From the IMG/VR virus record IMGVR_UViG_2548877009_000014: a DNA stretch of 22,726 nucleotides; one strand, written 5' to 3'. This document shows positions 1-4,030 of the stretch, in pieces. This stretch comes from a virus. Its lineage: Duplodnaviria; Heunggongvirae; Uroviricota; Caudoviricetes. Numbering within the stretch: the stretch's first letter is position 1; each line of letters begins with the position of its first letter. The notes below the pieces were generated by a model that saw only the letters and a list, made by a program, of their open reading frames with translations, was not told the origin of the DNA and did not search any database. A program made the translations under genes and the position numbers.

Positions 1-1158
1 ATGCTCACCGTTAAGCAGATTGAAGCAGCAAAGCCGAAAGAAAAACCATACCGCCTTCTCGATGGTAATGGTCTGTACCTTTATGTGCCTGTATCCGGGA
101 AAAAGGTATGGCAGCTTCGCTACAAGATTGGCGGTAAGGAGAAAATCCTGACCGTCGGAAAATATCCGCTTATGACTTTGCAGGAGGCAAGGGGTAAAGC
201 ATGGACTGCGAGGAAAGATATCTCGGTTGGCATCGATCCGGTAAAGGCGAAAAAGGCTTCGTCTAACAACAATTCCTTTAGTGCGATTTACAAGGAATGG
301 TACGATCACAAGAAGCAAGTATGGTCAGTAGGGTATGCGACTGAACTTGCAAAAATGTTTGATGACGACATTTTACCCATCATCGGCAGCCTTGAAATTC
401 AGGATATTGAGCCGATGCAACTGCTGGAAGTAATCCGCAGATTTGAAGATCGCGGTGCAATGGAGCGAGCCAACAAAGCCCGCAGAAGATGCGGCGAGGT
501 TTTCCGTTACGCTATTGTCACCGGAAGGGCTAAATATAACCCGGCACCTGACCTTGCAGACGCCATGAAAGGATACCGCAAGAAGAACTTCCCGTTTTTA
601 CCTGCAGACCAGATCCCGGCATTCAACAAAGCACTTGCAACATTTTCAGGAAGTATCGTATCGCTCATTGCGACAAAAGTTTTACGCTACACAGCCCTAA
701 GAACGAAAGAGCTTCGTTCCATGCTATGGAAGAACGTCGATTTTGAAAACAGGATTATCACCATCGACGCCAGTGTGATGAAGGGTCGCAAAATTCATGT
801 GGTTCCTATGTCAGACCAGGTAGTTGAACTTCTCACTACGCTAAGCTCTATCACCAAACCAGTATCAGAGTTTGTTTTTGCCGGGCGCAACGATAAGAAA
901 AAGCCAATCTGCGAGAACGCGGTGCTACTTGTGATCAAACAAATCGGCTATGAGGGTCTGGAAAGCGGTCACGGATTCAGGCATGAATTCAGCACGATTA
1001 TGAACGAGCACGAATGGCCTGCAGACGCCATTGAAATGCAACTGGCACATGCCAACGGCGGATCTGTGCGCGGGATTTACAACCATGCTCAGTATCTCGA
1101 TAAGCGCAGAGAAATGATGCAATGGTGGGCGGATTGGATCGATGAAAAGGTGGTGTGA
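1..1158 (+). CDS. int: Tyrosine integrase, P4/CP4-57 type; probably complete, but the start coincides with the window edge
   Basis: 385-aa ORF. N-terminus MLTVKQIEAAKPKEKPYRLLDGNGLYLYV matches the conserved N-terminal arm-binding motif of P4-family integrases; C-terminal region (HGFRHEFSTIMNE ... VRGIYNHAQY) is consistent with a tyrosine-recombinase catalytic domain. TGA at 1156-1158. Confidence 0.9.
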   Translation: MLTVKQIEAAKPKEKPYRLLDGNGLYLYVPVSGKKVWQLRYKIGGKEKILTVGKYPLMTLQEARGKAWTARKDISVGIDPVKAKKASSNNNSFSAIYKEWYDHKKQVWSVGYATELAKMFDDDILPIIGSLEIQDIEPMQLLEVIRRFEDRGAMERANKARRRCGEVFRYAIVTGRAKYNPAPDLADAMKGYRKKNFPFLPADQIPAFNKALATFSGSIVSLIATKVLRYTALRTKELRSMLWKNVDFENRIITIDASVMKGRKIHVVPMSDQVVELLTTLSSITKPVSEFVFAGRNDKKKPICENAVLLVIKQIGYEGLESGHGFRHEFSTIMNEHEWPADAIEMQLAHANGGSVRGIYNHAQYLDKRREMMQWWADWIDEKVV

Positions 1159-1220
1159 TCCACCTATATCGCCGTACAATTATCCAACTCACATAATATG
1201 GCGAGAGTAAAGCCTTTAGG

Positions 1221-1251
1221 TTGGTTGTTTTTTTGGGTTTATTCATATAAT
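1221..1251 (+). promoter_or_regulatory. Candidate sigma70 promoter for the cargo gene (TTGTTT-like -35, TATAAT at 1246-1251)
   Basis: Perfect TATAAT hexamer at 1246-1251 with a TTG-containing hexamer upstream, in AT-rich DNA about 100 bp before the 1352 ATG. AT-rich DNA produces such matches by chance. Confidence 0.2.
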
Positions 1252-1351
1252 ATTCTATATGTACGACAATTAAATTTATCTAATATTTAATTGCAATTTA
1301 AAAAATAACAAACTCACATTATACACTATAAAACAACATAAGGATTATGAC

Positions 1352-1939
1352 ATGTTGGTAGATAAGATATTGCACAAAACTGGATTATTTGACTTTCTGG
1401 ACAAAATTTTAATAACCCGTCCTTTCGCTATTGTATCCAATAACTGCTGGGGCTATAGACTATATAAAAATATAGGACTTGAATATAATACTCCCTTTAT
1501 CGGCCTGTACATCACAGCATCTGATTTTGTTGAAATGTGTATTAATTTGGAGCATTTTTTATCAAGAGACATTGTTGAAAGCGATTTCATTAATACAGAG
1601 CATAATTTCCCCGTTGCATTTGTGGATGGAGTAAAAATATACTTTATGCATTATAACTCAAGGGCAGAAGCCATGGATAAATGGAATAGAAGAATAAAAA
1701 GACTTCAATCTTTTATATCATCACATGGCCTTGATAGAGTTGTTTTTAAAATGTGTGATAGAGATGGAAGTTACATGGATGTAATGAAATTTAATGAGTT
1801 AAAAATAAAAAGAACGATATCTTTCACCTCGAAAGAAAACAAAGGACTCGTTGAGAGCAATGGTAATATTTACCCGGGAGATGTATTGTTCAACTTCAGA
1901 CACAGATATTATCTCAAGTATATCAAAACATTTAGATAA
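1352..1939 (+). CDS. Hypothetical cytoplasmic protein on an AT-rich moron; tentatively DUF1919-like (SNNCWG motif), a family associated with polysaccharide biosynthesis loci
   Basis: 195-aa ORF with AGGA ribosome-binding site about 7 nt upstream of the ATG. Markedly AT-rich versus flanking phage genes. No transmembrane segment evident. Motifs IVSNNCWGYRLY, NTPFIGLY and HYNSRAEAMDKWNRR recall DUF1919 from memory. Confidence 0.75.
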   Translation: MLVDKILHKTGLFDFLDKILITRPFAIVSNNCWGYRLYKNIGLEYNTPFIGLYITASDFVEMCINLEHFLSRDIVESDFINTEHNFPVAFVDGVKIYFMHYNSRAEAMDKWNRRIKRLQSFISSHGLDRVVFKMCDRDGSYMDVMKFNELKIKRTISFTSKENKGLVESNGNIYPGDVLFNFRHRYYLKYIKTFR

Positions 1940-1988
1940 CCACTCGACAAGAATATCTAAAGGAAATTATCAGTAGTATTAAAGATTT

Positions 1989-2027
1989 AGTGTCATTCAG
2001 GTAAAAGACTTAAAAAAGAATGACACT
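1989..2027. repeat. Perfect 10-bp inverted repeat (AGTGTCATTC ... GAATGACACT) with 19-nt spacer, 50 bp downstream of the cargo gene
   Basis: Arms at 1989-1998 and 2018-2027 read directly from the sequence. No U-tract after it on the + strand, so not a canonical intrinsic terminator; could be a weak terminator or a protein-binding site. Confidence 0.3.
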
Positions 2028-2340
2028 TGTCTCAATCCTTTAGTTTCGATAAAGCAATCTGGTCCAACCTAACTCTCACGAGTAAAGATAGTATCTCGAC
2101 ACTATCGAGTCAGGTGTCTGGAAATTCAGAAAGATGACCAAAGCAAAATATGCCTTCCAGAATGTGAAGGCAGTCTATTGAAGCTACTTACTGATGAATA
2201 TGCAAGAAAGATAGCCAATGGCACTTCAAAGCTGAAATTTAACATTGTCGTAATTAGCCATTTACTTTGAAGAATGACTGAATAATGTGATGAATCTGCA
2301 GAATTTTTAACGTGGCATAACATTCTGAATGCCTTCGATA

Positions 2341-2508
2341 TCAACTGGCTGCCACCTCCGGTGGAGGCGTAAATTCGCCGCTATTGTATATATAGCCACG
2401 CTGAGTGTCAGGAGGGCATTCAACCCAGATTAACGAGTCATGATATCTACCCGTTGGGTCTATATCAGTTAACTCCATTACCACGTTGTTTTCAATTCGT
2501 GCCCACAT
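2341..2508 (-). pseudogene. 55-aa ORF translationally coupled to the tail fibre gene; probable truncated remnant of a tail-fibre assembly chaperone (P2 gpG / Mu U-like)
   Basis: ATG at 2508 lies 11 nt after the tail fibre stop with a GAGGT ribosome-binding site. Translation MWARIENNVVMELTDIDPTG...WVECPPD resembles an internal segment of gpG-type chaperones (from memory). The ORF stops exactly where GC-rich phage DNA gives way to AT-rich DNA. Confidence 0.35.
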
Positions 2509-2518
2509 AATTTATACC

Positions 2519-3442
2519 TCACCAATAAATAATTACAATCCCGCTATGACCAGCACCAGTAACTCCGCCAGTCTTTTTCGTTGCCAACCCAGCGCCACCA
2601 CCGCCAGGACCTTTTGCATTACTGCCAACATTCCCCGCCGAATCTAAAACCTGTCCATGCCCGCCAGGACCACCGCCACTACCTCCGACAGCCGAATCAG
2701 TGCCTGCTATCATTGATGCACCAGGAGAGCCTGGGCCAAGAGACGTATTTATCTGCCCCCCCACACCTTCTCCCCCCACTCCTCCGGATATCTGACCTCC
2801 ACCATATCCGCCTGTTGCCGAGAGATATGTGCCAAAACTACTGGTGCCACCAGGATTTCCGTTTCTTGCTGACGTATTTTGACCTTTTCCACCACTGCCT
2901 ACAGTGATTGTGACGGTGTCAATACCTGTTAAGTCAATGACGGACTCGCTCACACCACCGCCGCCACCGCCGCCGCCACCGGCAGCGTTCGTTGAGCTTA
3001 TCGACGGGTAACCGCCAGACCCGCCACCGCCGATAACCTTCACCCTGACGCGTCGGCCCTTTTTCACTATGTCAGGAACATTCCAGGTGCTGACGCCTGC
3101 ATTATCAAATACAGCGCAATTTTGAGCGCCAAATGTGGCTTCTCCCAAACCAAGGTTTTCGAGAGCCGTTTGCACAGTGCCATCCGATTTGATATCGCCA
3201 AACGGATTCTTGCGGCTTAACAGCAGCGCGCGAAGTGCGGTAAGCAACTGATCGTGCCGCCCCTTCTCCAGGCTGGCACCGGATGCCTCCACCACGCTGC
3301 AAAGCTCCTCCTGCAACATATCAAAGTAGTCATCATCCAGATCGGTGGCAGGTGTGCCAGTCTGGGGGTTACCACGGGTAAAACCGTTCTTACCCGCGCC
3401 GAACTTATCCTTCTGCGCGGTTTTCGTGTCTATACGATGCAT
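2519..3442 (-). CDS. Tail fibre protein with conserved N-terminal baseplate-attachment domain and glycine-rich C-terminal region; unusually short
   Basis: 307-aa ORF. N-terminus [47 protein letters not shown] is a conserved enterobacterial prophage tail-fibre N-domain; the remainder is Gly-rich low complexity. GGAG ribosome-binding site 8 nt upstream. Position is last in the Mu-like baseplate operon. Confidence 0.8.
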
Positions 3443-3445
3443 GGA

Positions 3446-4030
3446 TTACTCCGGATATTTAAAAATTACGTAGGTATGCGACGGGCAGAGTTTGTTAAGC
3501 ACACATTCGACAACGGTGTCGCCCCAGATACGCAGCGCGGAATCACAGGGATCGCCACATGTCATCCAGGTGGTGTTTGTGGCGGCTGGCATGTTGACCT
3601 GCCAGTAATACCGCCATTCCGGCGCATTCACCGCGTCAGTACAGGCCGATGAGCAGGTGAACGTGCTTTTGTCGTATCGCGTGATGGTAGCGTCTGGTCT
3701 GCCCAGGGCAGCAAGCTGTGCAAGATAAAAATTCTCGTTGATGCCGCCCGCCAGGTTAACCTTCGCATCCAGCCGTTGCTGACGCTGGCGAAGGGTCTGT
3801 GTCCCTGCGGGAATACATTCATCCGGCAGACCGCACAGACGCTCCCAGCGGTTTATCAGTTCAGTGGTGGTGCGCGGATCCAGCTCCCGCATCAGGGCAT
3901 CCGCACGCTGATGAACGCGGGTTAATGACGGTGCCGCACCGGCAATCGCCGGATCGCTGGCTGACCACGCCGGACCGGGGGGCAACAGTGCCGACAACAG
4001 ACGGATGTAATCATCGTTTGTCACGTCCAT
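3446..4030 (-). CDS. Tail/baseplate protein, Mu gp48-like (DUF2313 / YmfQ-like)
   Basis: 194-aa ORF; position between the baseplate J-like gene and the tail fibre; start overlaps the upstream gene; sequence recalls the YmfQ/gp48 family. Confidence 0.8.

Follow-up and report, generated by a model that had tools for sequence, protein, structure and literature searches.

Phage-encoded changes of LPS decide the serotype, the vaccine and typing targets and the infecting phages of a bacterium. The known toolkits for such changes are Gtr, the AT3 acetyltransferases and a small number of soluble enzymes, NeuO among them. Gtr is a three-gene membrane system that performs glucosylation on the periplasmic side through Und-P-glucose. 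The GtrABC cassettes of SfV, SfII, SfX and P22, as well as yfdG-yfdH-yfdI of K-12 CPS-53/KplE1, occupy a slot after the argW integrase and before the fiber genes, and conversion morons located between int and tail fiber are well known as a kind of element. The AT3 O-acetyltransferases, including Oac of Sf6, OacB and the OafA-like AT3-SGNH enzymes, are polytopic membrane proteins. Prophage CUS-3 has NeuO, which O-acetylates polysialic acid and is a soluble enzyme encoded by a single-gene moron on the same intS/argW recombination module (PMC9659370, PMC2951348); it is a left-handed beta-helix hexapeptide acetyltransferase, its expression is switched by a 5′ tandem repeat, and it protects against K1 phages (PMC9659370, PMC2951348, PMC3046976). 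The hotspots of P2-like and P4-like phages hold defense morons such as old and tin, which act intracellularly with nuclease, NTPase or TIR-type domains and are likewise variable, AT-rich, single-gene cargo of temperate phages (PMC9122126).

The locus described here lies in a 22,726-nt stretch of prophage DNA (the window), in which an AT-rich island between the integrase gene and a tail-fiber gene carries one intact gene, encoding a DUF1919 protein. This gene shares with the GtrABC cassettes the slot, the orientation, the foreign composition and the backbone prophages, and its purpose (LPS change, serotype conversion and phage exclusion) is presumed to be the same. However, its product is a single, predicted soluble protein that shares no homology with GtrA, GtrB or GtrC and is not an integral membrane enzyme. 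It also differs from the AT3 enzymes in its predicted fold and in lacking transmembrane segments as well as any AT3 or SGNH domain. It resembles NeuO as a soluble, putatively glycan-modifying product of a single-gene moron on the intS/argW module, but there is no Hexapep match and no tandem repeat, and the modeled fold is different. The Xenorhabdus homologue adjoins the fiber genes of a P2-like prophage, as is the case for the hotspot morons; in contrast to these, DUF1919 matches no defense model and is associated with glycan synthesis. Within the libraries and literature that we searched, what is new is DUF1919 in a putative conversion role, repeatedly tied to phage receptor-binding genes.

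Results

A foreign island between integrase and tail fiber

The features of the left part of the window are as follows.

1..1158, plus strand: intS-type tyrosine integrase, 385 aa (Pfam Arm-DNA-bind_3, Phage_int_M and Phage_integrase); left prophage edge at tRNA-Arg argW
1166..2354, no strand: AT-rich foreign island, 32.5% GC, bordered by composition and homology; in 8 of 5,426 complete E. coli genomes
1221..1251, plus strand: candidate promoter TTGGTT, 19 nt, TATAAT (-10 at 1246-1251), proposed from reading by eye
1340..1344, plus strand: ribosome-binding site AAGGA, read from the sequence, 7 nt before the ATG
1352..1939, plus strand: DUF1919 gene, 195 aa, proposed lysogenic-conversion enzyme (Pfam, alignment, model and composition)
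1989..2027, plus strand: hairpin, a perfect 10-bp inverted repeat AGTGTCATTC ... GAATGACACT (sequence and RNA fold)
2122..2332, plus strand: decayed 3′ fragment of an IS256-family transposase gene (blastn and broken translation)
2341..2508, minus strand: 55-aa ORF, probable small fiber accessory gene, directly downstream of the fiber gene and outside the island
2519..3442, minus strand: tail fiber, 307 aa (Pfam Gly_rich_2; PHROG tail-fiber families)

The window opens at the start codon of the integrase, which is encoded on the same strand as the cargo gene. The first 1.5 kb around the finding are 100% identical to E. coli ECC-1470, whose integrase is annotated intS and directly follows tRNA-Arg (argW), the attachment site of K-12 CPS-53/KplE1 (PMC2951348). 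Rightward on the minus strand, the fiber gene is followed by Mu Gp48-like, baseplate J, gp46 and V genes and, further right, by tape measure, sheath, head and terminase genes. The prophage architecture is SfV-like, with an SfV-like or Mu-like tail.

The GC content is 0.475 in int (1-1158), 0.275 in 1159-1351, 0.320 in the ORF (1352-1939) and 0.354 in 1940-2340, compared with 0.55 in the fiber gene and 0.546 in the remainder of the window. Among all 1189-bp sliding windows of the stretch, 1166-2354 has the lowest GC content (0.325); those outside the island have a mean of 0.549 (sd 0.033, minimum 0.445), which places the island at z = -6.8 and bears out the AT-richness that a first-pass annotation had ascribed to about 1160-2340. 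The borders by homology agree with the composition: matching of other intS loci ends at window positions 1165-1183, and matching of a P2-like prophage resumes from 2355. The segment between these borders has no counterpart in 5,418 of the 5,426 complete E. coli genomes, save for 70-75% matches to IS256 transposase genes. In the same genome set the DUF1919 gene occurs in 8 genomes, with copies 99.9-100% identical over a 1.5-kb query, whereas the adjacent baseplate genes occur in 1,876. The gene therefore does not belong to the conserved backbone. As had been claimed for it, the region is a horizontally acquired moron, in view of its foreign composition and the absence of its content from nearly all E. 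coli genomes. Its initial extent, 1159-2518, was right for the AT-rich part, but 2341-2518 belongs to the fiber module, with its conserved 55-aa ORF; and the description as a single-gene island holds for the one intact gene (1352..1939) but leaves out the transposase fragment at 2122-2332.

The fiber joins a StfP-like N-terminus to a glycine-rich receptor-binding tip. According to the coverage pattern, this tip (to about 3120-3140) was co-inherited with the island in the same 8 genomes, and the same tip is found in a P2-like prophage of strain L73, where a 52-aa version of the 55-aa ORF follows it. We had considered the 55-aa ORF, which has no match in Pfam or PHROG, as a tail-fiber assembly gene truncated by the insertion; the 52-aa version after the same tip in this unrelated prophage ruled that out.

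Six genomes contain the whole 22.7-kb window at >= 99.8% identity. The ECC-1470 element has decayed: ISEc52 interrupts its tail-tube gene, the head genes are missing, and the sequence continues with lambda-like early genes and torI. In strain Res13 an IS1 lies between intS and the DUF1919 gene. The DUF1919 gene is intact in both, which is mild evidence of retention, the copies being too alike for a selection test.

Other contents of the island

The TATAAT at 1246-1251 is a perfect -10 match, with TTGGTT 19 nt upstream of it. The consensus promoter scan found no plus-strand site upstream of the ORF and no more sites than in shuffles; it accepts spacers of 16-18 nt only, and the 19-nt spacing of 1221..1251 falls outside this range. 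Promoter and terminator scans of the plus strand gave nothing above chance. Of the promoter-like region and ribosome-binding site first attributed to the gene, the latter is present (AAGGA at 1340-1344), but the promoter was not established, the scan being negative and 1221..1251 a reading by eye.

The hairpin at 1989..2027 begins 50 nt past the stop codon of the DUF1919 gene and has no U tract. RNA folding of 1936-2050 gave -22.3 kcal/mol (z = -2.66), and the hairpin possibly serves as a weak terminator or stabilizer. Further downstream, 2122-2332 matches annotated IS256-family transposase genes at 70-75% identity (blastn, E 2e-31), and its translation is split over two frames, with a frameshift and stops. 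This remnant is likely a trace of the route by which the cargo arrived. No flanking direct or inverted repeats of any meaning were found at the island, and recognizable IS ends or target duplications were rejected on this ground. A NeuO-like phase switch was rejected as well, because 1100-2600 contains no tandem repeats at a minimum score of 30. An Rfam search of 1-3500 returned nothing credible, with a lone isrK-like match inside int at E 0.31.

The DUF1919 protein

The ORF at 1352..1939 is intact and begins with ATG, in agreement with the 195-aa gene described initially. The only Pfam match of its product is DUF1919 (PF08942; 115.2 bits against a cut-off of 25, E 3.5e-33, residues 18-164), so the assignment made in the first-pass annotation was correct; NCBIfam and PHROG gave no match. 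The maximum 19-residue Kyte-Doolittle mean is 1.15, without a transmembrane segment, and the pI is 9.15. The protein is thus predicted to be soluble and basic, which upholds the earlier cytoplasmic placement. Literature searches for DUF1919 and its synonyms returned three passing mentions only, two of them in EPS or CPS loci, and no functional study; the family is uncharacterized, as had been stated.

By sequence, the protein matches PDB 2G6T (E 6e-11), the only solved member of DUF1919, and our model, a globular alpha/beta domain, is predicted to share its fold. The 2G6T protein, from Clostridium acetobutylicum and homologous to H. influenzae HI1244, is an uncharacterized structural-genomics entry solved in 2006. 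It carries an extra N-terminal domain (C2185-like_N). The window protein and the relatives from enterobacteria and phages lack this, consisting of DUF1919 alone, with a C-terminus that is shorter and divergent. A Foldseek search of viral models yielded marginal matches only (E about 2e-3, TM 0.41-0.45). These were giant-virus 'putative papain-like cysteine peptidases' and one glycosyltransferase; they are compatible with a Cys/His center, but we did not rely on them.

In an alignment of 76 sequences, nine columns are invariant (C32, W33, Y38, P48, F98, H100, W111, R114 and R117), and all are kept in the window protein, together with the near-invariant N30, N31, K110, R113, K133, C135 and D136. 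The DUF1919 motifs are present (the NNCWG loop, YNTPF, F-x-H-Y, K-W-x-R-R-x-x-R and K-x-C-D), and most near-invariant columns are kept. In the model, the conserved residues lie after strands (26-29, 94-97 and 130-135) and on the long helix 104-125. This pattern would fit an active site with a Cys/His center and a basic patch for a phosphorylated donor. The 76 aligned relatives contain no second Pfam family at E <= 1. The window protein matches no defense model of PADLOC-DB 2.0 at E <= 1; one DUF1919 relative had a chance-level PADLOC match (E 0.011).

Occupants of the slot in other prophages

The cargo is variable and foreign and lies between the integrase/att end and the fiber gene. We compared this slot in a sample of intS prophages, including prophages that share the backbone (87-91% of the 22.7-kb window at about 97% identity). 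K-12 CPS-53 carries gtrA/gtrB/gtrS (yfdGHI) in the same intS-to-fiber slot and in the same orientation. Among the backbone-sharing prophages, that of O17_K12a has gtrABC there, that of PRO_A-1401 has gtrA, gtrB and a gene for a 485-aa protein, that of LSC52 encodes a 373-aa AT3 acyltransferase, and that of P470 encodes an AT3-SGNH acyltransferase. The prophage of NADC1036 encodes two proteins without a Pfam match and an invertase; the 200-aa protein after intS in this strain was considered as another DUF1919 and ruled out. P22-like intS prophages have a GT2 or Wzy-like gene adjoining the tailspike, or nothing. The gene neuO is found on CUS-3, whose recombination module is the same (PMC9659370, PMC2951348). 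Since gtr, AT3, GT2 or Wzy-like genes and neuO make up the identifiable occupants, each of these modifies surface polysaccharide, and DUF1919 is a rare alternative. The comparison with the gtr slot that had been drawn initially therefore applies to K-12 CPS-53 and to backbone-sharing prophages, and the content of the slot does vary among related prophages.

Relatives in phages, LPS loci and fusions

An exhaustive search of the family returned 2,145 cluster representatives at E <= 1e-3, of which 8 lie at E <= 1e-30. Enterobacterales account for all of the closest relatives, many of which are carried by phages. About ten phage contexts have a relative (30-53% identity) as the immediate neighbor of tail-fiber or Tfa genes, usually in convergent orientation. 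One of these is L117 (49% identity), where the gene is convergent with those for a Tfa-like protein and a fiber whose N-terminus is 78% identical to that of the window fiber. In five others (L019, L020, L033, L022 and L021), it converges on Gp10_C-type fibers adjoining Mu Gp48-like genes, and in the viral contig L022 an AT3 gene lies upstream of it. An Arsenophonus phage-plasmid has the gene after a GT32-like glycosyltransferase, converging on Tfa and fiber genes; a Xenorhabdus P2-like prophage has it among fiber genes, with GT8 and GT4 genes; and in a Providencia remnant its neighbors are a broken integrase gene and part of a fiber gene. Two siphovirus contigs carry a more distant copy, convergent with the gene for an 800-aa GDSL-domain tail-module protein.

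Chromosomal homologues of the 35-46% identity class are found in LPS loci. That of Pectobacterium is in the waa locus, beside waaA-coaD and a GT32-like gene; that of Proteus is in an O-antigen locus, with wzx, licD, GT2 and CDP-ribitol genes; another lies between a KdoO-like gene and a GT25 gene. Edwardsiella has a lone low-GC DUF1919 gene. In a neighbor-joining tree, which carries no bootstrap support, phage copies and LPS-locus copies are interleaved. The GC content of the gene is below that of its surroundings in nearly every mobile copy and in several chromosomal ones; LPS genes and morons are usually of low GC.

In Flavobacteriaceae the gene has a conserved chromosomal arrangement, RuvX-DUF1919-Def, and about 30 such loci were removed by hand before neighbors were counted. 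The commonest neighbors were then GT2 (17/124) and GT1 (7/124), with Wzx, Wzy, hexapeptide transferases and sugar-nucleotide enzymes as further ones. DUF1919 is also fused to glycan-assembly proteins, namely GT2, Glyco_tranf_2_5 and the Wzx flippase, and to an FrhB-like Fe-S protein; PDB sequence searches with three longer fusion proteins identified no partner domain. Homologues are found on many mobilizable Lactococcus dairy plasmids, and the literature on these plasmids makes no mention of the DUF1919 gene.

Discussion

The functions originally envisaged for this gene were surface-polysaccharide modification and an unrecognized single-gene anti-phage system. The evidence favors the former, because relatives lie in LPS-core and O-antigen loci, adjoin glycosyltransferases and are fused to GT2 and Wzx; PADLOC, in turn, was negative. 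Position, linkage to receptor-binding genes, exchange with LPS loci and fusions agree with one another and point to a glycan-modifying conversion enzyme. On balance, we lean toward the view that the soluble DUF1919 enzyme is an LPS-altering lysogenic-conversion factor of the argW prophage.

We therefore outline a putative mechanism. The moron in the lysogenic-conversion slot of the argW-integrating prophage would provide, from its single gene, a soluble DUF1919 enzyme. Because the gene is parallel to intS and convergent on the late tail operon, its expression in the lysogen may be independent of late transcription. As the protein appears to be soluble, its place of action would be the cytoplasmic side of the inner membrane, and its target a nascent surface glycan, lipid A-core or an undecaprenyl-linked O-unit. 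A substituent would be added or altered, and the finished LPS would be changed. This change would alter the serotype and reduce the adsorption of phages that use that LPS structure, possibly including relatives with the co-inherited glycine-rich fiber tip. The invariant Cys32 and His100, the near-invariant Asp136 and the basic cluster of K110, R113, R114, R117 and K133 suggest a chemistry based on a Cys/His center and a phosphorylated or nucleotide-linked donor. For the substrate, the partner glycosyltransferases of the enterobacterial clade (GT8, GT25, GT32-like, and the waa locus) hint at the LPS core, and the Proteus locus and the usual content of the slot hint at the O-antigen.

A broader proposal, which we put forward tentatively and hold with less than even confidence, is that DUF1919 constitutes an unrecognized class of soluble glycan-modifying transferases with an orphan fold and a Cys/His center. 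Such proteins would be a one-gene receptor-masking device, spread by temperate phages of several tail types and acting cytoplasmically on lipid A-core or the O-unit, by a mechanism distinct from those of Gtr, AT3 and NeuO. If true, this would give a first function to a family of >2,000 sequence clusters with a crystal structure from 2006, explain why many bacteria have DUF1919 in their loci for LPS core, O-antigen, capsule and EPS, and supply a new marker for the genome-based prediction of serotype and phage susceptibility. The E. coli case is convenient to test, with one small soluble gene, well-known host LPS and six genomes containing all 22.7 kb, and the prophage gene thus offers a simple route to the role of the large DUF1919 family.

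It is unlikely that the gene is a passive passenger, dropped with an IS256-family element, silent or useless in E. coli and simply not yet decayed. The transposase remnant immediately downstream would fit such a history, as would the confinement of the gene to 8 nearly identical copies, which show no sign of long residence or selection. Moreover, no promoter rose above chance, and DNA of 27-32% GC, as here, is of a kind usually silenced in E. coli. H-NS is responsible for the silencing of such AT-rich DNA. However, the ORF is intact with all invariant residues kept, it has stayed intact in two decayed or IS-hit prophage copies, and genes of this kind are placed likewise in about ten further phage contexts from several genera, which argues against accident. 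An even smaller probability attaches to an intracellular single-gene anti-phage system unrelated to host glycans, for example one that acts by abortive infection or by modifying a component of the incoming phage. Defense genes are frequent in variable loci of temperate phages such as the P2-like and P4-like hotspots (PMC9122126), the island that holds the Providencia homologue also has McrBC, BrxR-like and Piwi-like genes, and the Lactococcus plasmid homologues could be read in the same way. We nevertheless consider this quite improbable, given that the protein has no PADLOC match, no partner gene and no nuclease, NTPase or toxin-like domain, that the neighbors and fusions of the family are glycosyltransferases and flippases, that close relatives belong to LPS-core and O-antigen loci, and that the gene is conserved in Flavobacteriaceae chromosomes.

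The direct adjacency to fiber or Tfa genes in most phage copies might also suggest a role in modifying or maturing the fiber, as an enzyme or chaperone. We give this hardly any weight, as the gene runs toward the late operon on the other strand and differs in composition, its close homologues include those of phage-free LPS loci, and most prophages of the same backbone lack it. A glycan-directed activity might, on the other hand, serve the host in an animal niche, through immune evasion or serum or bile resistance, by modifying a surface polymer as NeuO does by acetylating the K1 capsule, or with ECA, colanic acid or capsule, rather than LPS, as the target. The LPS-core and O-antigen relatives, the glycosyltransferase neighbors and the fusions apply equally to this explanation, and the carriers are gut, mastitis and clinical isolates. 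NeuO, which is likewise encoded by an argW prophage, influences resistance to phages as well as to neutrophils (PMC9659370, PMC13001214). Even so, we regard host benefit as unlikely to be the main purpose, because the tight linkage to tail fibers in many phages and the co-inheritance of the fiber tip here point to a phage receptor. Host benefit and phage exclusion are not mutually exclusive purposes.

DUF1919 in other genomic settings

In Flavobacteriaceae, DUF1919 lies in a conserved RuvX-DUF1919-peptide deformylase order (loci L006, L007 and approximately 30 of loci L037-L106). There it has the appearance of a core gene, not of one belonging to a polysaccharide locus, and this arrangement does not fit a simple account in which the DUF1919 protein modifies surface glycans. 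A homologue with 31% identity, carried by a giant-virus MAG contig (L025), adjoins an RNA polymerase Rpb2 gene, and among the BFVD structure matches the predicted model of the window protein shows a weak likeness to proteins of giant viruses that carry the label 'putative papain-like cysteine peptidase'.

A DUF1919 gene was also found, at approximately 30% identity, on 26 Lactococcus plasmids, of which almost all were typed as mobilizable (matches H29-H53; for example, pCIS8, L119, and SK11 plasmid 3, L120). On pCIS8, the gene is flanked by IS elements and preceded by a glycosyltransferase fragment. Because lactococcal phages bind cell-wall polysaccharide, it is conceivable that the plasmid-borne DUF1919 blocks phage adsorption.

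In two siphovirus contigs, a DUF1919 gene is convergent with a tail-module gene whose product bears a GDSL/SGNH esterase domain:

L023 8600-11026, GDSL/SGNH tail-module protein, approximately 800 aa
L024 8594-10951, GDSL/SGNH tail-module protein, approximately 800 aa

Here, a candidate glycan-modifying gene adjoins a candidate glycan-deacylating receptor-binding protein. In Providencia sp. PROV152 (L003), one island holds the DUF1919 gene, part of a fibre gene and a broken integrase, along with McrBC, BrxR/WYL, SMEK-like and Piwi-like genes.

The cargo slot in other E. coli prophages

In E. coli NADC1036 (L122), the intS-to-fibre slot of a backbone-sharing prophage holds two genes, followed by the pinE invertase and alternative fibre ends:

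L122 1493-2095, slot protein, 200 aa
L122 2577-3476, slot protein, 299 aa

Neither protein had a match in Pfam, and the pair is another uncharacterised cargo. The prophage of ECC-1470 (L121) is a remnant that lacks head and terminase genes and in which ISEc52 interrupts the tail-tube gene; to the right of the window counterpart lie lambda-like cIII-kil-gam-bet-exo genes and torI, and beyond these the csc sucrose genes together with a truncated dsdX.

The fibre module and its flanks

Three features of the window follow the DUF1919 gene, the first of them lying between it and the fibre module, and the small ORF has a counterpart in a P2-like prophage of strain L73 (L012):

2122-2332, +, IS256-family transposase gene, frameshifted 3′ fragment
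2341-2508, -, small ORF, 55 aa, MWARIENNVVMELTDIDPTGRYHDSLIWVECP...
2519-3442, -, tail fibre ORF, 307 aa, intact, chimeric
L012 4996-5154, small ORF, 52 aa

The RefSeq annotation of ECC-1470 has no IS256-family fragment corresponding to window 2122-2332. The fibre consists of a StfP-like N-terminus of approximately 105 aa fused directly onto a glycine-rich tip; RefSeq divides this ORF into an stfP pseudogene and a separate CDS. The tip shares 96% DNA identity with the end of the 560-aa fibre of the L73 prophage, which indicates that Mu-tail phages and P2-type phages exchange fibre tips with one another. In both phages, the glycine-rich tip is followed by the small ORF, which is annotated in neither genome and had no match among Pfam and PHROG families. 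This ORF may encode a dedicated fibre chaperone.
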